47,553 nucleotides of DNA from a virus (taxonomy: Duplodnaviria; Heunggongvirae; Uroviricota; Caudoviricetes), in the IMG/VR virus record IMGVR_UViG_2734482568_000006; one strand, 5' to 3'. The translations under genes and the position numbers were made by a program. A model generated the notes under the pieces. That model did no database searches and was not told where the DNA came from. It saw only the letters and a program-made list of their open reading frames with translations. Every line of letters starts with the position of its first letter. The stretch's first letter is position 1. This document shows, piece by piece, positions 1,433 through 47,358 of the stretch.

Positions 1433-1507
1433 TTCATTCTTTGATGTTTTATCATAATTAATGTTTTGTCAATAAATATATGGAAACATATTGTTTCAGA
1501 TGGGAAT

Positions 1508-2383
1508 ATGAGAAAGTTCATCCTTATTTCTATGATAACGTTAGCTAGTGTTAGTCTGGGAGCCTGCAGACAGAATGTCACCATAAAGCAGGATGCGCCA
1601 GGGCAGAAAGCTTTCCTGACTGACGGGCAGATTTACGATTTGCACAGTGGCAAAATTATTTCTAGCAGCGAGCTTTTGGCGGATCTTGCTACCGCTCGAC
1701 ATCTTATTATTGGTGAAAAACACGATAATGCCGAGCATCATCAGATTGAGCTTTGGCTTATTCAAAATTTGCTCATCCAGCGACCACAGGGGAGTGTGTT
1801 GCTTGAGATGTTGACGTCAGAGCAACAGCCCCGAGTTAACCAAGTTAAATGTTGGCTGAAAGATAATCCTGTGGTTCGAGATAGCCGTGTTCAGGAACTA
1901 CTTAACTGGCAAAAAGGGTGGTCCTGGGAGATGTATGGCGACATCGTCATGCAGCTATTACGTGGGCCTTACCCGCTGCTCAATGCCAACATTGGCCGGG
2001 AGCAGATGTTGGCACTGTACAAAAAAAACGAATTTCCTAAAGGAAAAAAATCCACTGCACCTGTGGTACAAGAAGCTCTGCGTGAAACCATCATATCTAT
2101 GCATGAAGGCAACCTTGAAAGCCAGCAACTGACGTCAATGCTCTCTATTCAGCAGCAGCGGGATCGCTACATGGCCCGCCAGCTTCTGAGTGCCCCGGTA
2201 CCGTCGTTGTTGATTGCAGGTGGTTATCACGCGTCAAAAAGCATGGGCGTACCGTTACACATGGAAGATCTTGCCACCGGCACCCATCCAGTGGTGTTGA
2301 TGCTTGCAGAAAAAGGAATGAACATCACAGTAGATCATGCTGACTACGTGTGGTTTGTAGCGCCAGATACAACAAAAAGGTAA
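1508..2383 (+). CDS. ChaN-like (haem-binding uptake, Tiki/ChaN family) lipoprotein
   Basis: Internal start MRKFILISMITLASVSLGAC gives a lipoprotein signal with lipobox; GEKHDNAEHH motif is typical of the ChaN/Cofac_haem_bdg family. Start chosen inside the 1466..2383 ORF. Confidence 0.6.
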   Translation: MRKFILISMITLASVSLGACRQNVTIKQDAPGQKAFLTDGQIYDLHSGKIISSSELLADLATARHLIIGEKHDNAEHHQIELWLIQNLLIQRPQGSVLLEMLTSEQQPRVNQVKCWLKDNPVVRDSRVQELLNWQKGWSWEMYGDIVMQLLRGPYPLLNANIGREQMLALYKKNEFPKGKKSTAPVVQEALRETIISMHEGNLESQQLTSMLSIQQQRDRYMARQLLSAPVPSLLIAGGYHASKSMGVPLHMEDLATGTHPVVLMLAEKGMNITVDHADYVWFVAPDTTKR

Positions 2384-2390
2384 ACCATGG

Positions 2391-3167
2391 ATGATGAATA
2401 TTCTCCACTTCTCACAGTCGGTAAAATGGAGCAGCTGGTTTATCTGTTCTCTACTGCTTCATGGACTGATTTTCCTTGCGTTTATCTGGCGTTTTTCCGA
2501 AGTTCAGCCCGCTATGTCTCCTGCACCGGCGATCATGCTGCAATGGGCAGAAATTATAGAGGCTCCTTCTTCTCCACTTTCGCTTCCGGTGGGAATCGCT
2601 CAACAGGAGTCCGCAGTGACAGAAGAAAAGCAACAAACTGAGGACAGACAACAACGTCCTGTCACTGAAGACAGTGATGCAACCATTGAAATAACTAGGA
2701 AGAAAAAGTCATCCGATGGAGAAAAGAAAAAGACACGTCCACCTCGTAAGATAAAGGCTCAAACCAGCGACAGCAACCCCACAGCCGTTTCCAGTAATGC
2801 TGCACCTCAGGCTCTGGTCGAATCGTCCCGTATTGCTGCGCCTTTTAACAGTGACTCAACAAAGCGAGATAATTCTGAGGCATCTTGGGAAAGCAGAGTA
2901 AAAGGCCACCTAAACCGTTATAAACGTTACCCTGGCGATGCCAGAAAACGTGCACGAACCGGCACAGCCGTCGTGACTTTTACCGTAAACACGGAAGGCA
3001 CTATTGTCAGTAGTTTCTTGGAAATCTCTTCAGGAACCCTTTCTCTTGACCGCGAAGCTATTGCTGTTTTAGAACGCGCTCAACCACTTCCCAAACCACC
3101 GCCTGAAATATTGGAGGGAGGATTATTTAAAGTAAAAATGCCGATTACCTTTAAGTTGAAGGAGTAA
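2391..3167 (+). CDS. TonB-family energy transducer (paralog)
   Basis: N-terminal TM segment with Ser/His (SLLLHG), charged Lys/Pro-rich linker, and a C-terminal TonB_C-like domain (GTAVVTFTVNTEGTIVS ... LPKPPPE). Confidence 0.7.
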   Translation: MMNILHFSQSVKWSSWFICSLLLHGLIFLAFIWRFSEVQPAMSPAPAIMLQWAEIIEAPSSPLSLPVGIAQQESAVTEEKQQTEDRQQRPVTEDSDATIEITRKKKSSDGEKKKTRPPRKIKAQTSDSNPTAVSSNAAPQALVESSRIAAPFNSDSTKRDNSEASWESRVKGHLNRYKRYPGDARKRARTGTAVVTFTVNTEGTIVSSFLEISSGTLSLDREAIAVLERAQPLPKPPPEILEGGLFKVKMPITFKLKE

Positions 3168-3335
3168 AGGGATAATTGGCCGTTCAAGTTCATTTAACTG
3201 AAATTTAATTTTCATTTTTATGCTGAACATTTTATCAAACTTTTCCACTGTCGAAAAAATCAAAAAGACAGTAGAACATAATTAATAAACAAATAGTTAT
3301 ACTTATCTTTATTAATATTATACCCAAGGAAATTT

Positions 3336-5597
3336 ATGAACGTTATAAAACTGGCTATCGGCTCAGGCATATTATTGCTCAGCTGCGGTGCTTACTCACA
3401 ATCCATCAGTGAAAAAACTAATTCCGACAAAAAAGGAGCGGCAGAATTCAGTCCGCTCAGCGTTTCTGTCGGGAAGACGACCAGTGAGCAGGAAGCTCTC
3501 GAGAAAACAGGCGCGACCAGTTCCCGGACAACGGACAAAAACCTGCAATCACTTGACGCAACAGTGCGTAGTATGCCTGGTACTTATACTCAAATAGATC
3601 CTGGTCAGGGAGCAATCAGTGTGAATATTCGAGGCATGAGCGGATTTGGTCGTGTAAACACTATGGTCGATGGTATTACCCAGAGTTTTTACGGAACCTC
3701 TACCTCCGGAACAACGACGCATGGTTCAACTAACAATATGGCTGGCGTACTTATAGATCCTAACTTACTGGTAGCAGTTGATGTTACACGCGGTGACAGC
3801 AGTGGCTCTGAAGGGATCAACGCCCTTGCCGGTAGTGCAAATATGCGTACTATTGGCGTTGACGATGTAATATTTAACGGTAATACATATGGCCTTCGTT
3901 CACGTTTCTCTGTCGGTAGTAATGGGCTGGGACGCAGCGGAATGATCGCCCTTGGTGGAAAAAGCGACGCTTTTACGGATACGGGAAGCATTGGCGTTAT
4001 GGCTGCTGTGAGCGGCAGTTCTGTGTACTCTAATTTCTCAAATGGTTCTGGAATTAACAGCAAAGAGTTTGGTTATGATAAATATATGAAGCAGAACCCC
4101 AAATCCCAACTGTATAAAATGGATATCAGACCAGACGAATTTAACAGCTTCGAACTTTCCGCTCGAACCTATGAAAATAAATTTACACGTCGTGATATAA
4201 CCAGTGACGACTATTACATTAAATATCATTACACCCCTTTTTCTGAATTAATTGACTTTAACGTAACGGCCAGTACCAGTCGCGGTAATCAAAAGTATCG
4301 TGATGGCTCGCTGTATACTTTCTACAAAACCTCAGCGCAAAATCGTTCTGACGCGCTGGATATCAACAATACCAGCCGGTTCACTGTCGCGGACAATGAC
4401 CTGGAGTTTATGCTGGGCAGCAAACTGATGCGTACCCGCTATGACCGGACCATTCACTCAGCGGCGGGCGACCCGAAAGCGAATCAGGAATCGATCGAGA
4501 ACAATCCGTTCGCACCCTCCGGCCAGCAGGATATTTCAGCGCTGTATACCGGGCTGAAGGTTACGCGCGGCATCTGGGAGGCAGATTTCAATCTCAACTA
4601 CACACGTAACAGGATCACAGGGTACAAGCCCGCCTGCGATTCACGCGTTATCTGCGTGCCACAGGGTAGCTACGATATTGACGATAAAGAGGGTGGCTTC
4701 AACCCTTCAGTTCAGCTTTCTGCTCAGGTAACACCATGGCTTCAGCCGTTCATTGGCTACAGCAAATCCATGCGCGCCCCGAACATCCAGGAGATGTTCT
4801 TCTCTAATTCAGGAGGCGCATCCATGAACCCATTCCTGAAGCCTGAACGTGCAGAAACCTGGCAGGCGGGTTTTAACATTGATACCAGAGATTTACTGGT
4901 CGAACAGGATGCCCTGCGCTTTAAGGCTCTGGCGTACCGCAGCAGGATCCAGAACTACATCTACAGCGAGTCTTATCTGGTTTGTTCTGGAGGTCGTAAA
5001 TGCAGTATGCCTGAGGTGATTGGCAATGACTGGGAGGGCATTAGCGATGAATACAGCGACAATATGTACATCTACGTTAACTCGGCAAGCGACGTTATCG
5101 CAAAGGGCTTCGAACTGGAGATGGATTATGATGCAGGTTTTGCTTTTGGCCGACTCTCTTTCAGCCAGCAGCAAACAGACCAGCCAACCTCCATCGCCAG
5201 CACCTACTTTGGCGCAGGGGATATGACCGAACTGCCCAGAAAATACATGACGCTGGATACTGGTGTTCGCTTCTTCGATAACGCGTTGACCCTGGGCACT
5301 ATCATAAAATACACAGGCAAGGCTCGTCGCCTGTCGCCTGATTTTGAGCAGGACGAACATACCGGCGCAATAATCAAACAGGATTTGCCGCAGATCCCAA
5401 CGATTATCGATCTCTATGGTACTTACGAGTACAACCGCAACCTAACACTGAAACTTTCGGTACAAAACCTGATGAACAGAGATTATTCGGAGGCGCTGAA
5501 TAAGCTCAACATGATGCCAGGTCTTGGTGACGAGACCCACCCAGCCAATTCCGCGCGTGGCAGAACATGGATATTTGGCGGGGACATTCGTTTCTGA
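3336..5597 (+). CDS. TonB-dependent outer-membrane receptor
   Basis: 753 aa with signal peptide, plug-like N-terminal region, long beta-barrel-like body and terminal aromatic residue (..GGDIRF); adjacent to the TonB paralog and ChaN-like gene. Confidence 0.85.
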   Translation: MNVIKLAIGSGILLLSCGAYSQSISEKTNSDKKGAAEFSPLSVSVGKTTSEQEALEKTGATSSRTTDKNLQSLDATVRSMPGTYTQIDPGQGAISVNIRGMSGFGRVNTMVDGITQSFYGTSTSGTTTHGSTNNMAGVLIDPNLLVAVDVTRGDSSGSEGINALAGSANMRTIGVDDVIFNGNTYGLRSRFSVGSNGLGRSGMIALGGKSDAFTDTGSIGVMAAVSGSSVYSNFSNGSGINSKEFGYDKYMKQNPKSQLYKMDIRPDEFNSFELSARTYENKFTRRDITSDDYYIKYHYTPFSELIDFNVTASTSRGNQKYRDGSLYTFYKTSAQNRSDALDINNTSRFTVADNDLEFMLGSKLMRTRYDRTIHSAAGDPKANQESIENNPFAPSGQQDISALYTGLKVTRGIWEADFNLNYTRNRITGYKPACDSRVICVPQGSYDIDDKEGGFNPSVQLSAQVTPWLQPFIGYSKSMRAPNIQEMFFSNSGGASMNPFLKPERAETWQAGFNIDTRDLLVEQDALRFKALAYRSRIQNYIYSESYLVCSGGRKCSMPEVIGNDWEGISDEYSDNMYIYVNSASDVIAKGFELEMDYDAGFAFGRLSFSQQQTDQPTSIASTYFGAGDMTELPRKYMTLDTGVRFFDNALTLGTIIKYTGKARRLSPDFEQDEHTGAIIKQDLPQIPTIIDLYGTYEYNRNLTLKLSVQNLMNRDYSEALNKLNMMPGLGDETHPANSARGRTWIFGGDIRF

Positions 5598-5665
5598 TGA
5601 CAATTTCCGCTAGGTTCAGACAATACGTTTTCTCTCTTATGTCAATTTTATTGCAGGAACGAAAA

Positions 5666-6841
5666 ATGAATATTTTCACTTTATCCAAAGCACCGCTATA
5701 CCTGTTAATTTCACTATTTTTACCCACGATGGCCATGGCTATCGATCCACCTGAACGCGAACTTTCGCGATTTGCCCTGAAAACGAATTACCTTCAGTCC
5801 CCTGATGAAGGCGTCTATGAACTGGCGTTTGATAATGCCAGTAAAAAGGTGTTTGCAGCAGTCACCGATCGTGTAAATCGTGAAGCCAATAAAGGCTATC
5901 TGTATTCGTTTAATTCAGATTCGCTGAAAGTCGAAAATAAATACACGATGCCATACCGGGCATTTTCGCTGGCGATAAATCAGGATAAACATCAGCTCTA
6001 TATCGGACACACCCAGTCAGCGTCCCTGCGTATCAGTATGTTTGACACCCCAACCGGCAAACTGGTAAGAACCAGCGACAGGTTAAGTTTTAAAGCGGCA
6101 AACGCTGCAGATTCGCGTTTTGAGCATTTTCGCCATATGGTTTACAGCCAGGATTCCGATACCCTGTTTGTGAGTTATAGCAATATGCTGAAAACGGCCG
6201 AGGGCATGAAGCCTCTGCATAAGCTGTTAATGCTCGACGGGACGACGCTTGCCTTAAAAGGCGAGGTTAAGGATGCTTACAAAGGTACAGCGTATGGTCT
6301 GACGATGGATGAAAAAACACAGAAAATCTACGTTGGCGGAAGAGATTACATCAACGAAATTGATGCGAAAAATCAGACGCTGCTGCGTACCATCCCGTTG
6401 AAAGATCCGAGACCACAAATCACAAGTGTGCAGAATCTGGCGGTGGACTCCGCTTCTGACCGTGCCTTTGTGGTGGTATTCGACCATGACGATCGTTCCG
6501 GTACAAAAGATGGACTCTATATTTTTGACTTACGCGACGGTAAACAGCTTGGCTATGTGCACACAGGAGCCGGAGCTAACGCGGTGAAATACAATCCGAA
6601 ATATAACGAACTGTATGTCACCAACTTCACTAGCGGCACCATCAGCGTAGTGGATGCCACCAAATACAGCATCACCCGTGAATTTAACATGCCGGTCTAC
6701 CCAAACCAGATGGTGTTGTCGGACGATATGGATACCCTTTACATTGGCATCAAAGAAGGCTTTAACCGCGATTGGGATCCTGATGTGTTTGTGGAAGGAG
6801 CTAAAGAACGTATTCTGAGCATTGATTTGAAAAAGTCGTGA
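5666..6841 (+). CDS. YVTN-family beta-propeller protein (YncE-like), secreted
   Basis: Internal start MNIFTLSKAPLYLLISLFLPTMAMA gives a signal peptide; repeats such as LYVTNFTSGTISVVDA match the YVTN beta-propeller repeat. YncE-like proteins are commonly encoded next to TonB-dependent receptors. Confidence 0.6.
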   Translation: MNIFTLSKAPLYLLISLFLPTMAMAIDPPERELSRFALKTNYLQSPDEGVYELAFDNASKKVFAAVTDRVNREANKGYLYSFNSDSLKVENKYTMPYRAFSLAINQDKHQLYIGHTQSASLRISMFDTPTGKLVRTSDRLSFKAANAADSRFEHFRHMVYSQDSDTLFVSYSNMLKTAEGMKPLHKLLMLDGTTLALKGEVKDAYKGTAYGLTMDEKTQKIYVGGRDYINEIDAKNQTLLRTIPLKDPRPQITSVQNLAVDSASDRAFVVVFDHDDRSGTKDGLYIFDLRDGKQLGYVHTGAGANAVKYNPKYNELYVTNFTSGTISVVDATKYSITREFNMPVYPNQMVLSDDMDTLYIGIKEGFNRDWDPDVFVEGAKERILSIDLKKS

Positions 6842-7828: not shown

Positions 7829-8330
7829 GTAAGCGTGCAGCAAGAACCGTATTGACGGGAATGTGTTATTCAGTCGGCAGTGCTACGCGCCAGGGGAGCA
7901 GTTCGCCGACCCGGTTTATCGGCCAGTCGGCTATGACGTCAAGGACATAGCGGAGGTAGCTTTCTGGCTCCACTCCGTTCAGTTTGCACGTCCCGATCAG
8001 GCTGTACAGCAGCGCTCCCCGCTCTCCTCCATGATCCGAACCGAAGAACAGGTAGTTTTTGCGGCCCAGACTGACCATCCGCAACGCATTTTCAGCGATG
8101 TTATTGTCCGCCTCAGCCCAGCCATCATCTGCATAGTACGTCAGCGCCGGCCACTGGTTCAGGGCATATGCGAACGCTTTCGCCAGTTCTGAGTGTCGCG
8201 ACAGGGTTTTCATCTTTTCACGCAGCCAGCTTTCCAGGGATTTCAGCAGCGGTTTCGTTTTCAACTGACGTTCGGCAAGGCGCTGTTTCAGCAGGAAGAT
8301 GTCGTCAGAAGAGATGTCGTTCATAAGCCC
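7829..8330 (-). mobile_element. IS66-family element, distal fragment (terminal IR plus 3-prime part of tnpC)
   Basis: Terminus begins GTAAGCG (7829-7835), recalled as the IS66-family end motif, followed inward by the tnpC 3-prime end. The partner part (tnpA, tnpB) is at 47035-47553 on the far side of the prophage. Confidence 0.7.
7866..8324 (-). pseudogene. tnpC: IS66-family transposase TnpC, C-terminal fragment (about 150 aa of about 520)
   Basis: DDGWAEADNNIAENALRMVSLGRKNYLFFGSDHGGERGALLYSLIGTCKLNGVEPESYLRYVLDVIADWPINRVGELLPW matches the conserved IS66 TnpC C-terminus; the upstream frame is closed by a stop at about 8380. Confidence 0.8.
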
Positions 8331-8431
8331 GTATTTTACCGGGCTTATTCTGTGACAACCAGGATAAAGAGATTTACAGCATGGTCAGGGAGGTCAGCAG
8401 CCGCTTAGGCTGTCTATAGCGCGGCGATTTT

Positions 8432-8497
8432 TTTGATACCGATTTGCATTTCATTTGATACCGCTGAAAAACGCCGATACGCAACTTATTTGATACT
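8432..8497 (+). repeat. Prophage end (Mu attR-equivalent) with three closely spaced TTTGATAC(C/T) repeats
   Basis: tttgataccg at 8432-8441 and 8454-8463, tttgatact at 8489-8497; inverted copies occur at the other end (46875-47030). Confidence 0.5.
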
Positions 8498-8542
8498 AAA
8501 TCGGCGCTTTTCTTTTGAGTTTTAGAATGAGTTTTTAAGCGT

Positions 8543-9280
8543 TCATTCACTCTCTTTCAAACCAGTTTTAACTGTTTGTGGTTTTGGGTAAGGCTGGACT
8601 TTGAATAGCTTTGTGTTAAGGCGTTTTCTGGCTCTCTTGTCCAGAAACCGGATGTAACGAAACTGACGGAATTTATGAACACTGGCTCTGTCGATATTAG
8701 CCCGCAGATGTTCACCTCGCTGTCCTCCTCGTTTGATTGCATTCTTGCAAATCTCGTGATACCACTCGCCATCAAGTTCATAGAATGTTGTTTCATGACT
8801 GCCTACATAATCAAAATTGCTTGCCTGGTACACGACACCAAGACAGCCACAACGCTCATCTGCAAACGACTGAACCCACTGCACCTGCGGATAAAGTTGT
8901 CTGATTAGTTTGAGCGCGTAACTGATTGCCCTTGATTCGGAGTTTCTCGGCATACAGTCATGCAGCCATAACCGGTTAAGCTCCATATATTCGCGGTTCT
9001 GCGTGCCAGTTACGACGCGTGCACCATTGTTTGGATTAAGGGCATAACCCCATTGCATTACGCCAACCAGCTCCCGTTCTGAAAATATGCCCAGATGAAG
9101 GTAGGAATTATTTACGAAACGATGGCTGTAATGTTTATTGACGACGACCAGCCGGGCCAGCCAGCAACTTATTGTCTCAACCCGTAACTCACGGGAGCCA
9201 TAACCGACGATATTGTCGTTATAGTGAATAAGTTCAGGCGTGCTGATGATACGGGATGTAACTTGCTTTCTGTTCCCCAC
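8543..9280 (-). CDS. mom: Mom-like DNA modification protein (start uncertain, probably GTG at 9280)
   Basis: Position at the prophage end directly downstream of and overlapping a Com-like zinc-finger gene, as in Mu; size about 245 aa from the first in-frame GTG after the com region. The ORF track gives a longer 310-aa frame from 9475. Confidence 0.55.
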
Positions 9281-26738: not shown

Positions 26739-27686
26739 TTACAGATAATCCGCGACAACCAGCTCCAGCTTGCCCTTCATCTCGTTAGAGACTGTGGCGT
26801 TACCGTCTGCGAACAGCTCGCGCTCCAGCAGCTGCACCGCCTGTTTTTCCAGCGAGGTGGGGACAACAATATGGGTGGGTTTGATGCCGAGTTTGCGGCC
26901 ACCGTCAGCCTTAAAGTCACGCATGGCTGACCAGCCGTGCCACAGCGCATCCAGCGTCAGCGGTGACTGCATCATGTAGGCCATCTGCCAGAAGCCGTAG
27001 CCCACATTGCGACGGGCGGAAGCACCGAACACAAACTCGTTATCAGTAAACGCACGGCCTTCATCGACTTTTGTCTGGGCAACCAGTTCGGCTTTGCGGC
27101 GATCCTGATAAATCAGCGGTTTTACCGCGCGGGAGCAGTCAAGCAGATACCAGGCCGGGCCGCTGTAATCCGCCTGTGCACCGACAGAGCCGGTTTTTGC
27201 CACAAACATATTGCTGACCATCTGTGCATCACCGGAGCCATCCACTTTGGGGTAAACAGGGTGTTCGGTATCAAAGAAGTTCTGGCCGTCATAGCAGGCC
27301 GCATTCAGACCATCACGCAGTGCAGCAAAGACCAGTTCATCCGGTTGTGCCGCAGCGGCACGACCCATTTCCTGGAATAACGGGGAGTAGATGCCGAGAT
27401 TGTCGTCTTCAAAGTCATCGCGGCTAATGGCAACGGTGCCTTCAAAGGTTTTGTTCACGATGGCGTAGCCATAGGCTTTCATCTTCTCGATGACGCGGGA
27501 GCCGATCCACTCACGGAACTGCGGGAACTGCCCCAGCCAGCCGTAGGTGTTGGATTTCGAGGTGGACGGCACGGTCATCGCAATTTTCTGGTACTGCGAC
27601 GGAGCCATGGACATCCCGGCCTGAAAATCAGAACGGTAGCCCGTCATCAGGGCGGTGATCATCGCCGGTGTAATCGGGGTAGGCAT
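26739..27686 (-). CDS. Major capsid protein (Mu T-like)
   Basis: 315 aa directly downstream of the protease/scaffold gene. Confidence 0.8.
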   Translation of the reverse strand: MPTPITPAMITALMTGYRSDFQAGMSMAPSQYQKIAMTVPSTSKSNTYGWLGQFPQFREWIGSRVIEKMKAYGYAIVNKTFEGTVAISRDDFEDDNLGIYSPLFQEMGRAAAAQPDELVFAALRDGLNAACYDGQNFFDTEHPVYPKVDGSGDAQMVSNMFVAKTGSVGAQADYSGPAWYLLDCSRAVKPLIYQDRRKAELVAQTKVDEGRAFTDNEFVFGASARRNVGYGFWQMAYMMQSPLTLDALWHGWSAMRDFKADGGRKLGIKPTHIVVPTSLEKQAVQLLERELFADGNATVSNEMKGKLELVVADYL

Positions 27687-28996: not shown

Positions 28997-29470
28997 TTAC
29001 GGCGTTTCTGTGGCCTTTTTAAAGCGTTTTCTGATTTCGTCCATGATCTCCTGTTCTGCCACCTGATCAAAGCCCATATACGGACGTGCGCCAATGGCCG
29101 CCGGTCCCGGTGGCATACCAGGCAGGCCACCCCACTGATGAATGGCTGCATAAGGTTCATTTGATCCAATCAGCGCCCAGGTATCGCCATAATCCGTGGT
29201 CAGGCGGCGGGCCAGATCGCCGTTCAGCGTCAGGATTTTGCCGGGCGTGTATCCCTTACGGGTACGCCACTCACGGTAAGGATCTGACCAGTCATGCCAG
29301 CGTTCACCATCCGGCTCTTTTTCCTGCTCAAACGCCATTTCTGACGATGACAGAAGACTCGCCGCCACACTGCGGGCCAGGTCTTTTCCGCCGCCCACAA
29401 ACTGAAGCCGGGCAAACACTCGCTGGAGACGCGTAACGTCAACAACGACAGCTGCATCAATGGATGACAT
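28997..29470 (-). CDS. Virion morphogenesis protein (Mu G-like)
   Basis: 157 aa between the F-like and I-like genes. Confidence 0.7.
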   Translation of the reverse strand: MSSIDAAVVVDVTRLQRVFARLQFVGGGKDLARSVAASLLSSSEMAFEQEKEPDGERWHDWSDPYREWRTRKGYTPGKILTLNGDLARRLTTDYGDTWALIGSNEPYAAIHQWGGLPGMPPGPAAIGARPYMGFDQVAEQEIMDEIRKRFKKATETP

Positions 29471-29509
29471 ATTGCCTCCGCATAAAGGATGAATATAAAA
29501 TAAACAGGC

Positions 29510-29589
29510 GGTCAGTGTACGCTTAACTGGTAAAGTCGGTGCCTGCCTCCGGGTGGATCATGTATGCGGGTTCGACCCCCGCCACTGAC
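29510..29589 (+). ncRNA. tRNA-like structured element (T-arm plus 7-bp acceptor-type stem; not a canonical cloverleaf by eye)
   Basis: gtcagtg at 29510-29516 pairs with cactgac at 29582-29588; gcggg-ttcgacc-cccgc at 29565-29581 forms a T-arm-like hairpin with a TTCGA loop. It is antisense to the phage late genes, in the F-G intergenic gap. Confidence 0.3.
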
Positions 29590-29591
29590 CG

Positions 29592-42510: not shown

Positions 42511-42738
42511 TTAGCTGACTTGTTTCGCACCAACAGAACGGCATATTCCGCTGTAAACTTCTGTCGCACCTTCGCGATCAAGTCCGGCAGATATCACCAT
42601 TCGTGTGCGGTCATTAAATTCAAAAAGTAAATCGCCACATTCTTTATTTTCGGCCAGTGAAATCACCTTCACGTTATCGAAATTAACCAGGTAAAAGCGT
42701 CCGTAAATATCAGGAATATTAAATACCGCCATAATCAC
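42511..42738 (-). CDS. Hypothetical early protein (75 aa), at the position of Mu kil
   Basis: Immediately downstream of B, coupled (overlapping stop/start). Confidence 0.4.
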   Translation of the reverse strand: MIMAVFNIPDIYGRFYLVNFDNVKVISLAENKECGDLLFEFNDRTRMVISAGLDREGATEVYSGICRSVGAKQVS

Positions 42739-43676
42739 ACCTGTGAGAGTAATTCAGGGTTGGTATAAACCTCTTTAAAGGCCGCATTAATATGTTTTTC
42801 TGTCAGCGCCGCGCCTTCACCGCTGGCGGTGAGCCACGCCTGGTTAAGCGTATGTGTCAGAACGCGTAACGCTCCCGGCTTTTCAGCGATAGCCTGCATG
42901 ACGGCCAGCTCGGCCTCACCACTGATCCCCCACGCCATGGCAATGGCCAGCACATCCGCCTTTTTGGCCTTGCGAAGTTGTTTTGTACGGGCAAGACGGC
43001 TGAACAGGCGCGATAAATCATCAAAGGCGCGGCGTCCACCTTTAAACAATCCGCGCGGGTTACCAATAAGCACCATCCCGATCCCCGTGGCGTCCTGAAT
43101 TGCCCGGAGTTGCTCCAGACCGTCAATACCAAGATGATCCGCCTCATCCACAATCACCAGTCCACGCGTTCCCATCAGGCGACGGCGGATGGCGCGGGAT
43201 AATGCCCCTTTGTTCGCGCGGGTGTAATCAATCCCCAGCGCATCGGCCAGCTCCAGCAGACACTCCGTGACGCTGGAGTGCGCGGGTGACAGGGTGATCA
43301 TCCAGGTGTTTGGTTGCTCCTGGCAGTAATTACGGGCAGTGGCCGTTTTACCCACACCCGGTACGCCCACAATAACGTTAATACAGCCCATCAGGCGAAC
43401 CGCCTGAAACAGTGCGCGCAGCTCCTGGACTGTCTGAGTTTCCACAAACTGCGGCGGTTCCGGCAGTGCGCTTTGTTTATTCCAGTTCTCATACCAGGAG
43501 CGCAGGGAAGCAGCCACAGCAGCGTTATCGCCTTTATATTTTCCCTTACGGAAAGCCGATAATGTGCCGTCGGAAATTCCCGCCTCTCTGGCGATGGCAT
43601 ACTGCGTCAGTACGCCGCCATCAATAAGTTCATCAATGGTCTTGATTACATCGTTAATATCGGTCATATTATTCAC
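42735..43676 (-). CDS. B: Transposition ATPase B (MuB-like AAA+ target-DNA activator)
   Basis: ALPEPPQFVETQTV ... GVPGVGKT ... WMITLSP ... LSRAIRRRL ... VIVDEADHLG parallels Mu B throughout. Confidence 0.85.
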   Translation of the reverse strand: MNNMTDINDVIKTIDELIDGGVLTQYAIAREAGISDGTLSAFRKGKYKGDNAAVAASLRSWYENWNKQSALPEPPQFVETQTVQELRALFQAVRLMGCINVIVGVPGVGKTATARNYCQEQPNTWMITLSPAHSSVTECLLELADALGIDYTRANKGALSRAIRRRLMGTRGLVIVDEADHLGIDGLEQLRAIQDATGIGMVLIGNPRGLFKGGRRAFDDLSRLFSRLARTKQLRKAKKADVLAIAMAWGISGEAELAVMQAIAEKPGALRVLTHTLNQAWLTASGEGAALTEKHINAAFKEVYTNPELLSQV

Positions 43677-43749: not shown

Positions 43750-45837
43750 TCAGGCCAGCGGATCACTTTCTTTTAATTTCGCTTCGAGCAGTTGCAATCC
43801 CCGCTGGAAATTACGCTCGTATTCTTCATCAGGTTCATCGTCAGCGACCGGTTGCTGAACGGTCACCGTATTACCCACAGGGCGGTATATGTTTTCCAGC
43901 CAGGGCTCCTGCGGCTTGTGCTCCAGCACGTTGACAACCTCATCCTCGGCATCACGGATTTTTTCCTCTGCGCGTTTACGCATGCCTTTAAGGCGCTGCT
44001 GCTGTTTGTAGTATTCCGCGCTGACAGGGAAGGCTTCGCGTTTATTGCCGTCCCATACCGCCTCGCAAATCACGCTGCCATCCGGGCGGCGCACGGTAAT
44101 TCGTTCGGCATCATGAATGTCATAGCTGATAAGTACCTTACGGCCATGCTCGTCACGCAGCTCGGGCGCGTAGTAAATATTATTCAGCCAGCGTATTTCA
44201 CAGCGTCTTACAGGGCGCTCCACCATCGGCCGGAACATATCCCGCAGTTCAACATCGGACAGCCATTCAATTTCCGTGTCCTCTTCCGCCAGGCGTTTTT
44301 TTCTGAACTCCGCCGGGCTGTAATGTTTACCGTTCGGCTTCATGGGTAATTCATCGTGCGGCCGGTTGTTGTACCACTCAACACCGTCACGAATGGCATC
44401 AATCAGTTCAGACCAGGACGGTAAATCACGCATCGCTGACTGCTGCCGGGCGTTCAGCCGTTTGCCCTGTTGCAGGGCACTGAATGCCGAGCGTAAATCG
44501 CGGTTGGTTTTACGTAACGTCTCGCGATCTGCTCCTTTCCCGAAATAGGTGCGGTATTTACGGGCTATGCGCATCGGTAATGTGCGGTTAAGCCGTTCGA
44601 TAATGCCCCGTCCCTGCGGATTACCGGCAATCCCTGTCGGGTGATTAATCCCCAGTCGTGGCAGTATCCCCACAATCTCCTTATCCAGGACGTCGGCGGT
44701 TTCCCCGGAGCCATTATCCGAGTAATACAGAAACGGTTTGCCATGATGGCGAATACCGTGCTGTATGGCACCGGCTACGGCGAAAACATTTTCAGCCAGG
44801 TCAAGGCTCCAGCCCACCACAAAGCGCGTGCCACCGTCGATAACAAAGGTCACTTCCGGTGCGAATGGCCGCCCGTGAACCGGGTGCGCGCATTTCAGCT
44901 TCATGCCGTGACCGTCACCAATCCAGACATAATTCACCGGCATTCTGGACCAGTCGCGGCGCGTGAATCCCTCAAGCTGACGGTATTCACTGCCAGTTAC
45001 CCGGCCTTTTTGTTTCACCACTTCCGGCAGTTTCTTCATTGCGCGGCGAATGGTGTCATAAGAGGGCATGATATCGAGCATATAAGGCTCATCAGCGTGC
45101 CGGTGCTGCCATTCAGCAACAAAATCCTCGTAAGCCTCGGTCATTGGTCGGCCGTTTGACTGGCGATACTGCGCCAGAAATTCGGGCAGCCAGTTAATAT
45201 CTTCGGCTTTTATTTCCTGGCGTTTACCCGGTGCCAGTAAAAGCAGGCGTTCAGCGGCGTTCTGTGCCTTGTTAAAGGCCGCAATCCAGCGTTTCAGCGT
45301 GATTTCACTCAACGCGCGGCTGTTTCCCTTTTTGGCGTTCGCCGTCTCAACCATTGCCACAATGCGCTCGTCCAGTTGTGATCGTGCCAGGCTGTTAACG
45401 AGGAACCGGATAGCTTTAGCGCAGCTGAAACCGGGTTGTTGCGTGAATTTCAGCACCTCACTGACGATCGCAATGCGTGCGTCTGCCACCTGGCGCTGGT
45501 TTTCAGTCAGGGCATTGAGGCGTTCGACCATCAGTTGTGGTGATCCGCGATATGCCTCCACCGCATCAACCACGGCAGACGAGCGTCTGGCCTTTGTCAC
45601 CACCGGAGCCGGTGATTCATCGGCTTTTTGCGTCATCAGTTGCAGGGCATAACGTTCGCGTAATGCCTGCTGTGTCACTTCAGGTAAACAGTCAATGCTG
45701 TATTCAAAACCTTTAGCGCCTTTCTTGCGGCGTCTGCTGGTTTCGCTGGTTGCATACTTCCTGATTGAATAGCGAACGCCTTGCTCCGTTCCCGGCATCC
45801 CCGGTAATCCAACCAGTTCTTTAACTGAAGCAAACAT
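43750..45837 (-). CDS. A: DDE transposase A (MuA-like)
   Basis: 695 aa between ner and B with MuA-like architecture (N-terminal winged-helix end/enhancer-binding region, central catalytic core). Confidence 0.9.
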   Translation of the reverse strand: MFASVKELVGLPGMPGTEQGVRYSIRKYATSETSRRRKKGAKGFEYSIDCLPEVTQQALRERYALQLMTQKADESPAPVVTKARRSSAVVDAVEAYRGSPQLMVERLNALTENQRQVADARIAIVSEVLKFTQQPGFSCAKAIRFLVNSLARSQLDERIVAMVETANAKKGNSRALSEITLKRWIAAFNKAQNAAERLLLLAPGKRQEIKAEDINWLPEFLAQYRQSNGRPMTEAYEDFVAEWQHRHADEPYMLDIMPSYDTIRRAMKKLPEVVKQKGRVTGSEYRQLEGFTRRDWSRMPVNYVWIGDGHGMKLKCAHPVHGRPFAPEVTFVIDGGTRFVVGWSLDLAENVFAVAGAIQHGIRHHGKPFLYYSDNGSGETADVLDKEIVGILPRLGINHPTGIAGNPQGRGIIERLNRTLPMRIARKYRTYFGKGADRETLRKTNRDLRSAFSALQQGKRLNARQQSAMRDLPSWSELIDAIRDGVEWYNNRPHDELPMKPNGKHYSPAEFRKKRLAEEDTEIEWLSDVELRDMFRPMVERPVRRCEIRWLNNIYYAPELRDEHGRKVLISYDIHDAERITVRRPDGSVICEAVWDGNKREAFPVSAEYYKQQQRLKGMRKRAEEKIRDAEDEVVNVLEHKPQEPWLENIYRPVGNTVTVQQPVADDEPDEEYERNFQRGLQLLEAKLKESDPLA

Positions 45838-45839
45838 AA

Positions 45840-46070
45840 TTACGCGACCTTACGAATGTAGCGGCTGGGCCAAATCTCCTCGGGCGGCACCCCCAGGCAT
45901 TCCGCGATAATCCCCTCATACTTGGGAACATGGCGGTATACCGCGTTGTACAGATTGTTCTGACCCACGCCAGCTTTACGGGCCAGCGCCCTCATGCTTC
46001 CTTCTCTGGCTCTGACTTCCCCCAAAATTCTTTGAGGATGCCAATCAGGCTTAACTTCATTTCTCGCCAT
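45840..46070 (-). CDS. ner: Ner-like DNA-binding early regulator
   Basis: MARNEVKPDWHPQRILGEV ... EEIWPSRY parallels Mu Ner (..DWH.., ..EVIWPSRY..). Confidence 0.85.
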   Translation of the reverse strand: MARNEVKPDWHPQRILGEVRAREGSMRALARKAGVGQNNLYNAVYRHVPKYEGIIAECLGVPPEEIWPSRYIRKVA

Positions 46071-46255: not shown

Positions 46256-46801
46256 ATGAACAAGCAAACAACAACATCTCTTTCTTTTCCTGGTGGTAGA
46301 AAAGAAAGCATTGCTGAGCGTCTGAAAAGGCTGATTGGCTCCCGCAGCGTCAGAGCTGCAGCAAGAGATTGGGGGCTTTCATTTTCAACACTAAACAATT
46401 ATCTGTCTCGTGGCACTGAGCCATCCTTAAGTGTCGCCCTTCAGATTGCGTCTATCGAAGGAGTAAGTGTTGAGTGGCTATGTGGATTCAGTGATGCATC
46501 ACAAGTGAATCGGTGTGAGATCAAGGAAAATCAAGATGAAAGCAAGAAGATAATTATGACGATTATCAGCGCACTTGATGAAAAAGACTTAGAGCAGCTA
46601 TCGAAAAATTTGGTTCTGAATGGAGCCAAGTACTTAGCTCGGTTGTTAGAGCCTGAAAATCAAGATCTAATCCGCTTAGAAGGAAGGAAAAGAATAGCTG
46701 CATTACAGCTTGAAGGTATGTCTGACGAACGCGTCAGAGAGATTTTGGAAGAAACTGAGAGAAGTCGCAAATCTAACGCGGTAGAACCAAAAGCGGGTTA
46801 A
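46256..46801 (+). CDS. Prophage repressor (HTH, at the position of Mu c)
   Basis: Divergent from ner; LSFSTLNNYLSRGTEPSLSVALQIASIEGVSVEWL looks like an XRE/CI-type helix-turn-helix. Confidence 0.6.
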   Translation: MNKQTTTSLSFPGGRKESIAERLKRLIGSRSVRAAARDWGLSFSTLNNYLSRGTEPSLSVALQIASIEGVSVEWLCGFSDASQVNRCEIKENQDESKKIIMTIISALDEKDLEQLSKNLVLNGAKYLARLLEPENQDLIRLEGRKRIAALQLEGMSDERVREILEETERSRKSNAVEPKAG

Positions 46802-46874
46802 TAGCATTAGCCCGCATTTTGCACTATATCGAGTATTTCGCATTGTTTGGAACGCCTTAAAAGACTAAAACCAC

Positions 46875-47030
46875 AGTATCAAATGAGTTGCCGATTTTAT
46901 AATAAATGACTAATTATTGCACAATCGGTATCAAATAGACCTTATCCGCACATCTAGCCATCACCTGTTTTATTTCAGTATCTTACAGGTGATTTCACCT
47001 CCTTTCACTAAACCCCTTGTCGGTATCAAA
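46875..47030 (-). repeat. Prophage end (Mu attL-equivalent) with three spaced copies of the terminal motif
   Basis: cggtatcaaa at 47021-47030 and 46926-46935, cagtatcaaa at 46875-46884: offsets of roughly 0, 95 and 146 bp from the end, like the spacing of Mu L1/L2/L3. Confidence 0.5.
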
Positions 47031-47034
47031 TGAT

Positions 47035-47358
47035 TCACCTGGTTATATGTCGCCAGTCGATACCTTCCAGCAGCATCGCCAGCTGCGCCTGTGTAAGGAA
47101 CACTTTGCCATCACGGGCTGACGGCCAGGCGAAGCGCCCACGCTCCAGCCGTTTGGTCAGGAGGCACAGTCCGTCACTGGTGGACCACAGCAGTTTAACC
47201 TGACTGCCGCTGCGGCCCCGGAAAATGAAAACATGGCCGGACATGGGATCGTCTTTCAGCGCCGTCTGTACTTTCGCAGCCAGGCCGTTGAAGCCATTTC
47301 TCATATCGGTGATACCGGCAACCAGCCAAATTTTGATCCCGGAAGGTAACGGGATCAT
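47035..47358 (-). CDS. tnpB: IS66-family accessory protein TnpB (orf2)
   Basis: MIPLPSGIKIWLVAGITDMRNGFNGLAAKVQ...GHVFIFRGRSGSQVKLLWSTSDGLCLLTKRLERGRF is the typical IS66 Orf2 sequence; its start overlaps the upstream orf1 stop (ATGA). Confidence 0.85.
   Translation of the reverse strand: MIPLPSGIKIWLVAGITDMRNGFNGLAAKVQTALKDDPMSGHVFIFRGRSGSQVKLLWSTSDGLCLLTKRLERGRFAWPSARDGKVFLTQAQLAMLLEGIDWRHITR

Follow-up and report, generated by a model that had tools for sequence, protein, structure and literature searches.

Work on DDE transposition takes bacteriophage Mu as its reference, and the Mu system is widely employed as a tool in vitro; to our knowledge, end recognition has been dissected for Mu itself only. 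The DNA analysed here, a stretch of 47,553 nucleotides referred to as the window, contains a Mu-like transposable prophage with a short motif repeated near both of its ends. The locus raises the question of where exactly the prophage ends, and of which protein reads the repeats close to its termini.

Extent and termini of the prophage

The prophage occupies positions 8415-47047 of the window on the minus strand (38,633 bp), with the repressor-proximal (L) end at 47047 and the mom-proximal (R) end at 8415. It is a near relative of Sp18, the Mu-like prophage of E. coli O157:H7 Sakai, whose DNA is packaged, like that of Mu, without circularisation (PMC2669165). Relatives are found in 232 of 5426 complete E. 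coli genomes at many differing loci, a scatter that is expected of a transposing phage. In the window, both outer flanks consist of the IS66-family element ISEc8, which is broken exactly at 8414/8415 and 47047/47048; intact ISEc8 is restored on deleting 8415-47047 together with one copy of TGTC, the flanks fitting only with a 4-bp overlap.

Relatives inserted elsewhere yield the same boundaries: all 20 independent mom-end junctions lose similarity directly outside TATAGCGCGG (terminal TATA), and at the L end seven junctions cease to match outside TGTAACCAGG (Sakai type) or TATAACCAGG (window type, at three different loci). For one of these relatives (L015), in which the prophage is expanded by IS66-family elements and the mom end lies beyond the fetched range, the L junction alone was used. 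Read inward, the mom end is TATAGCG (that is, ...CGCTATA-3') in 20 of 20 junctions, and the R end finishes in ...TA-3' in Sp18, in Klebsiella phage Kp4866-3, in Yersinia phage vB_YpM_5 (hereafter YpM_5) and in the class 2 prophages described below, as apparently also in SuMu, whose R end appears to begin TATA. The L end is more variable, with TA in the window lineage (TATAACC, at three sites), in the Salmonella relatives L034 and L035, in YpM_5 and in class 2, and with TG in Sakai-type Sp18 (TGTAACC).

Every insertion for which both junctions could be read (seven of seven) is flanked by a 4-bp target duplication, the repeats being TGTC, TAAA, CGAA, CATA, TAAT, AACA and TTCA. The set comprises six Sp18-type insertions (in ISEc8, sorM, citF, creC, dcuC and sgrR) and the class 2 insertion L037, with junctions taken from window positions 8411-8418 and 47044-47051 and from L001, L002, L003, L004, L014 and L037. 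The empty sites in ISEc8 and in citF of E. coli K-12 match only at a 4-bp overlap; for dcuC, the comparison with K-12 gave no matching empty site at up to three mismatches, whatever the overlap. A duplication of 5 or 6 bp with shifted phage boundaries was considered and rejected, mismatched repeats being needed in most insertions. The records of SuMu and Kp4866-3 carry a few bases of flanking, perhaps host, DNA.

The ends so defined provide a rule for delimiting such prophages in STEC genomes, namely TRTA...TATA ends plus a 4-bp repeat, where the L end is TRTAACC... and the mom end is ...GCGCTATA. Existing annotations deviate from it slightly, by a few bases; in L001, for example, Sakai Sp18 is placed at 372-39130, against 371-39125 by this rule.

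The ISEc8 copy that hosts the prophage seems to be damaged: the tnpC reading frame starting at 8324 (7866-8324) encodes only 152 aa, and its similarity to the DDE domain of IS66 is limited to the C-terminal part. The tnpB gene (47035-47358) is intact. Further out, the left flank (1466-6841) holds a haem/iron uptake cluster with a ChaN-like haem-binding protein, a TonB-like protein, a TonB-dependent receptor and a β-propeller protein.

A motif repeated at both ends

The exact 10-mer TTTGATACCG stands on the plus strand at 8432 and 8454 and on the minus strand at 46926-46935 and 47021-47030; the third copy of each end is imperfect, TTTGATACTA at 8489 with two mismatches and TTTGATACTG at 46874-46883 with one. 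The 8-mer TTTGATAC is exact in all six end copies, both imperfect third copies included, and the repeated end motif can be written as (A)TTTGATAC(C/T)(G/A). The original prediction, which had listed three copies at the mom end (8432, 8454, 8489) and inverted copies at the repressor end, is borne out in these respects, the latter copies having measured offsets of 0, 95 and 147 bp. It was also right in assigning a motif cluster to either end of the prophage; the true termini are 8415 and 47047, not 8432 and 47030.

In the window, the exact 10-mer occurs five times where 0.09 copies are expected, and the 8-mer seven times where 1.25 are expected; not one of 100 dinucleotide-preserving shuffles reaches either count. 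Six of the seven 8-mer copies lie no more than 175 bp from the prophage termini and all six are oriented inward, the first motif copy beginning exactly 17 nt inside either terminus. Counted inward, the motif takes up positions 18-27, 40-49 and 75-84 at the R end, and 18-27, 113-122 and 165-174 at the L end. The seventh copy (27266-27275, minus strand), again an exact TTTGATACCG, is located within the major head gene (coding context NFFDTEHP), and the bases upstream of it fit the 22-bp consensus given below in part; it probably reflects chance or coding constraint and has no obvious role.

The six end copies close 22-bp units (Table 1) with the consensus nnnnGCrAyTyATTTGATACyG. These units are bipartite, the inner half being strongly and the outer half weakly conserved. 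L3 and R3 are especially similar, outer halves included (GCAACTyATTTGATACT).

Table 1. Coordinates of the putative end sites, target-site duplication and neighbouring genes in the window
Feature	Position	Strand	Description	Remarks
R1	8420..8441	+	22-bp putative A-binding site, inward 6-27, CGCGGCGATTTTTTTGATACCG, motif 8432-8441	Register of Mu R1
R2	8442..8463	+	22-bp putative site, inward 28-49, ATTTGCATTTCATTTGATACCG, motif 8454-8463	22 bp after R1, like Mu
R3	8477..8498	+	22-bp putative site, inward 63-84, ATACGCAACTTATTTGATACTA, direct, motif 8489-8498	8-mer exact
L1	47021..47042	-	22-bp putative site, inward 6-27, CCAGGTGAATCATTTGATACCG, motif 47021-47030	Register of Mu L1
L2	46926..46947	-	22-bp putative site, inward 101-122, GGATAAGGTCTATTTGATACCG, motif 46926-46935	
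L3	46874..46895	-	22-bp putative site, inward 153-174, ATCGGCAACTCATTTGATACTG, motif 46874-46883	
Hairpin and U-run	8466..8512	-	Follows mom; R3 motif in loop	RNA fold -23.4 kcal/mol, z = -3.4
mom	8543..9280	-	mom gene, reading frame intact, marks R end	72% nucleotide identity to Mu mom/com
MuB-like ATPase	42735..43676	-	AAA+ transposition ATPase, after A	Pfam Phage-MuB_C and AAA_22
A transposase	43750..45837	-	695 aa: Iα-like N-terminus, Iβ-like end-binding domain, DDE core, Mu-transposase C-terminal domain	
Ner-like protein	45840..46070	-	Small helix-turn-helix protein, reading frame intact	Counterparts in relatives are PF13693 HTH_35
Repressor	46256..46801	+	HTH_3/CI-type helix-turn-helix	Pfam HTH_3 E = 2e-4, just under gathering cutoff
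Target duplication, mom side	8411..8414	+	TGTC	Empty site reconstructed against intact ISEc8
Target duplication, repressor side	47048..47051	+	TGTC	ISEc8 empty site; 4-bp rule in six more insertions

The R3 motif falls in the loop of a hairpin which, from its predicted fold, is likely the mom terminator and, with A and U runs on its flanks, likely a bidirectional one. A scan for consensus terminators did not report this hairpin after mom, its loop being large; direct folding found it. Since R3 sits in the terminator loop, its conservation inside the Sp18 group alone is uninformative, and the case for R3 as a candidate site comes from Kp4866-3, YpM_5 and class 2.

An extra degenerate element, GGAGGTGAAATCACCTGTAAGATACTG, lies between L1 and L2 (46976-47002; L end inward 46-72). 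It resembles L1 with a 4-nt insertion, is accompanied by a CACCTGT/ACAGGTG inverted repeat, and has no counterpart in the relatives from Salmonella and Klebsiella. In Kp4866-3, YpM_5 and class 2, the spacer between L1 and L2 is similar to that of Mu (CCGGGAGGA..ATTGGAT..CGGGA), the A-binding motifs being different, whereas the Sp18 spacer is unlike the Mu type (spacers compared: L010 27-70; L009 about 460-510; L037 331-375; L005 30-70).

Conservation of the sites and covariation with the transposase

The 7-mer TTGATAC starts at inward positions 19/41/76 (R) and 19/114/166 (L) in Sp18 (window and Sakai), at 19/41/76 (R) and 19/123/165 (L) in YpM_5, at 19/41/75 (R) and 19/89/131 (L) in Kp4866-3, whose A protein is 57% identical, and at 19/113/165 (L) in the Salmonella prophage L034. 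In all of them the copies are direct, and the spacers between sites diverge. Site by site, the position of R1 is kept in YpM_5, Kp4866-3 and the class 2 phage, that of the R2 motif (40-49) in four lineages, and that of the R3 motif (75-84) in YpM_5, Kp4866-3 and class 2; the 7-mer starts at 113/114 for L2 in L034 and Sakai, and at 165/166 for L3 in L034, YpM_5 and Sakai.

The class 2 prophages, namely L032 and L037 (Shigella and E. coli) and L036 (Salmonella), encode A proteins about 64-74% identical and have TTCAAGATAAC in place of TTTGATACC at every end site; at the R end the copies start 18, 40 and 75 positions in, and the L end has three copies (end regions: L032 2741-2900; L036 1746-1900; L037 305-460 and 34840-34923). 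Their R3 position bears the swapped motif as TTCAAGATAAA. A scan of genome contigs with the A protein gave two loci, both of the class 2 lineage; a word-based protein search with A, which returned partial N-terminal fragments only, was used for alignment and for finding contigs. The N-terminal 300 residues of A were aligned for six transposases, four of the TTTGATAC type and two of the TTCAAGATAAC type; fixed differences between the classes are concentrated at 133-190, within the Iβ-like domain, and residues 86-130 and 191-300 are near-identical between the two. The motif covaries with the transposase segment 133-190 in this handful of lineages. The outer half of L1, GAAGAGGTGA, is common to the Salmonella representatives of both classes, and in the more distant SuMu and Kp4852-3 the sequence TTTTGCAY takes the same register.

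The transposase and neighbouring genes

Over its whole length the A protein shares 23% identity with MuA, a value that drops to 12-14% in the region aligned with MuA Iβ and Iγ. Pfam recognises in it HTH_Tnp_Mu_1 (the Iα-type N-terminal domain) and Mu-transpos_C, with weak integrase-core signals only. In a sequence search against solved structures it matches MuA Iα and retroviral integrases, the latter in their catalytic cores; in the same search, the MuA core was not matched. Residues 80-300, in an AlphaFold model of moderate confidence, fold like the Iβ end-binding subdomain of MuA, and on this model the end-binding domain of A is structurally homologous to that of MuA although hardly any sequence identity is left; the structural match was made for the Iβ-like part. 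Among the listed matches, the closest phage relatives of A are Kp4866-3 (57%), SuMu (43%), Kp4852-3 (41.5%) and the Pseudomonas D3112 group (30%); Mu is absent among the best 60 of 246 tblastn matches at E ≤ 1e-5.

The Pfam hits of the repressor do not include the Mu c family. Compared with Sakai, the A protein of the window is 94-100% identical except for residues 1-85 (Iα, enhancer-binding; 45583-45837), where identity is 68%, and the repressor and L-end DNA (46560-47047) is about 80% identical or unalignable; judged from sequence, this looks like an exchange of immunity/enhancer modules of the kind that distinguishes Mu from D108.

Elsewhere in the prophage (10769-12823 and 12909-13481), beside the Gin-like serine invertase, there is a 684-aa gene with sialate O-acetylesterase (SASA) and DUF6645 domains, which is annotated in the fetched Sp18-type relatives as well. 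In relatives, the RefSeq annotation has a 'tRNA-OTHER' where the head-morphogenesis genes adjoin those for virion morphogenesis (L002 20698-20777; L004 21435-21515; the corresponding window region is about 29470-29590); ARAGORN found zero tRNAs across the whole window.

What binds the end sites

Taking position, orientation and conservation of the repeats together, the six sites are almost certainly the functional equivalent of the Mu att sites in a divergent transposable phage, that is, a feature of the kind to be expected there, and they are very probably bound by the prophage's own A transposase as counterparts of Mu L1-L3 and R1-R3. The six inward motif copies would then be the conserved inner halves of six 22-bp A-binding sites. 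The Iβ-like subdomain of A, with its specificity residues around 133-190, would read the inner half ATTTGATACCG at 18-27, and the Iγ-like region and linker, located downstream, would read the weakly conserved outer half. A molecules at R1, R2 and L1, aided by the accessory sites L2, L3 and R3, would pair the ends into a transpososome; the rve-type DDE core would nick after the terminal ...TA-3' (in most Sp18 relatives the L end has CA instead), and A would join the 3' ends, with a 4-bp stagger, to a target supplied by the MuB-like ATPase. The analysis itself establishes the exact termini, the enrichment, placement and orientation of the motif, its conservation and covariation with a transposase segment, the Iβ-like fold and the 4-bp duplication; binding by A, the allocation of the half-sites to subdomains and the order of assembly are what we infer. 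In the strand-transfer complex of TnsB, for which the domain names of MuA are used, Iγ and the linker contact positions 5-19 of the end and Iβ contacts positions 20-30 (PMC9371665). The latter range fits a motif at 18-27 as an Iβ half-site, and the assignment of Iβ to the inner half is made by analogy with the structures of TnsB and MuA.

In Mu, other proteins act near the ends, and the repeats might instead be bound by one of these, be it the repressor or Ner at operators, a host factor (IHF, HU or Fis) or the terminase at a pac element. The L1-L2 spacer does hold further repeats (AGGTGA and CACCTGT/ACAGGTG), and it is between L1 and L2 that the pac site of Mu is located, which would favour a ligand other than the transposase. 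A pac element or an operator, though, needs one end only, whereas the motif is found at both, the copies at one end being inverted with respect to those at the other and the distance to the terminus being exactly 17 nt in either case; besides, a 22-bp R1-R2 tandem in the Mu register is specific to transposase sites, the motif switches along with transposase segment 133-190, and window and Sakai share the same motif despite differing in their immunity regions (c-end DNA and A residues 1-85). We therefore regard a ligand of this sort as very unlikely. Chance is an even poorer explanation: the terminal DNA is rich in A and T, where short motifs tend to come up repeatedly, and the repeats could in principle be a compositional feature devoid of function, but none of the 100 shuffles attains the observed motif counts, a result that excludes a chance origin, and between lineages with diverged spacers the site positions differ by no more than one or two bases. 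Such a reading is exceedingly improbable.

Binding by A could also be confined to the exact copies R1, R2, L1 and L2, with the copies at 8489 and 46874 being fortuitous or relics, and the former nothing but a part of the terminator. The core of the Mu transpososome consists of L1, R1 and R2, the remaining sites being accessory; the two copies in question carry two and one mismatches, respectively, and a stable hairpin followed by a U-run has R3 in its loop. Yet both copies contain the 8-mer TTTGATAC unaltered; YpM_5 retains R3 at 75-84, as does Kp4866-3, whose sequence after the R end differs from that of Sp18, and in class 2 the R3 position bears the swapped motif TTCAAGATAAA; three lineages retain L3 at 165/166, and the outer halves of L3 and R3 are alike. 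A restriction to four functional sites is accordingly improbable, and six A-binding sites is the reading retained here.

An abundant, EHEC-associated relative of Mu has kept the end architecture of Mu almost to the base, and in its close sister lineages the recognition motif has changed along with a short segment of the Iβ-like domain, which offers a testable map of how end specificity is encoded and, possibly, orthogonal transposase/end pairs for engineering. It can further be proposed, tentatively and as a reading that falls just short of being the probable one, that the Sp18 group (E. coli, Shigella, Salmonella, Klebsiella, Yersinia) is a distinct mechanistic variant, with a 4-bp stagger, acceptance of 3'-TA, and graded pairs of Iβ segment and half-site (TTTGATACC, TTCAAGATAAC, TTTTGCAY) at identical positions. 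If true, nature would have provided a series of orthogonal transposition systems of the Mu type, their specificity determinant mapped to about 55 residues. The literature searched gave no description of the Sp18 group as such a variant, and nothing on Sp18 end sites, on the motif or on a 4-bp duplication in Mu-like phages, an earlier description being possible.

Comparison with Mu and other transposition systems

The ends of Mu were scanned with the published 22-bp MuA consensus YGTTTCAYTNNAARYRCGAAAR, which matched L1 (6-27), L3 (151-172), R2 (28-49) and, on the opposite strand, R3 (56-77); R1 (6-27) and L2 (about 110-131) are discernible in the Mu sequence by inspection. As in the window prophage, Mu has three sites per end, bipartite and with a better-conserved inner half. 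R1 (6-27), R2 (28-49), contiguous with R1 as 22-bp units, and L1 (6-27) are in identical register in the two phages; L2 and L3 lie about 95 and 147 bp inside L1 here, against 104 and 145 bp in Mu, so that L3 agrees within 2 bp and L2 is 9 bp nearer to the terminus. The Mu-like asymmetric spacing that had been proposed for this locus is therefore real, with R1 and R2 contiguous, L1 set apart from L2 and L3, and R1, R2 and L1 in the register of Mu. R3, however, is direct here and inverted in Mu; an inverted copy of the Mu type was sought and is absent from Sp18, YpM_5 and Kp4866-3.

The same search that retrieves L1, L3, R2 and R3 in Mu finds no match to YGTTTCAYTNNAARYRCGAAAR in the window at up to three mismatches, in keeping with the earlier claim that the motif is not that of Mu, and the recognition sequences are indeed unrelated (ATTTGATACCG here, RCGAAAR in Mu). 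As the Mu consensus is unmatched and A diverges from MuA in the end-binding region, a transposase of different end specificity, as originally suggested, is the natural reading; the identity of 12-14% in that region supports it. The termini differ too: the mom end has TA in place of TG/CA, as have both termini of the window lineage. So does the duplication, 4 bp instead of 5. Genes for a DDE transposase and a MuB-like ATPase adjoin the L end as in Mu, and recognition by an Iβ/Iγ-type domain is probable.

Sp18 thus has what characterises Mu-type att sites: target duplications at many sites, an asymmetric layout of repeats, A and MuB-like genes, and an end-binding domain that is, on the model, of the Iβ/Iγ type. 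The traits of Mu in the strict sense (Mu, D108, SfMu), i.e. consensus sites, TG...CA termini, a 5-bp duplication, an inverted R3 and a transposase close to MuA, are all absent from it. SuMu (Haemophilus; A 43%) and Kp4852-3 (Klebsiella; A 41.5%) belong to the same transposase clade as Sp18 and resemble it in having the motif core at 21-25 and R1-R2 spacing of 22 bp, but differ in the motif itself (TTTTGCAY), in an inverted copy downstream of R2 in SuMu, and in TG...CA at both ends of Kp4852-3.

Target duplications are 5 bp in Mu, 6 bp in B3 and 6 bp in transposable prophages of Leptospira (PMC8705779). Some of the latter likewise depart from TG...CA and have TA-TA ends, yet they differ from Sp18 in the 6-bp duplication and in their hosts and transposases, which are unrelated; a case of 4-bp duplication is not mentioned in that report (PMC8705779). 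As to Tn7-like elements, no TnsA-, TnsC- or TnsD-type gene was seen beside A, which is followed by the MuB-like ATPase, the rest being phage genes in annotated relatives; moreover, in the TnsB arrays of Tn7 and CAST the conserved half is the Iγ half, whereas in Sp18 it is the inner, presumed Iβ half. To sum up, the end sites are not a new kind of feature but a clear variant of the Mu type, in which an unrelated recognition sequence is set in a near-identical scaffold, with a direct R3, TA termini and a 4-bp duplication.
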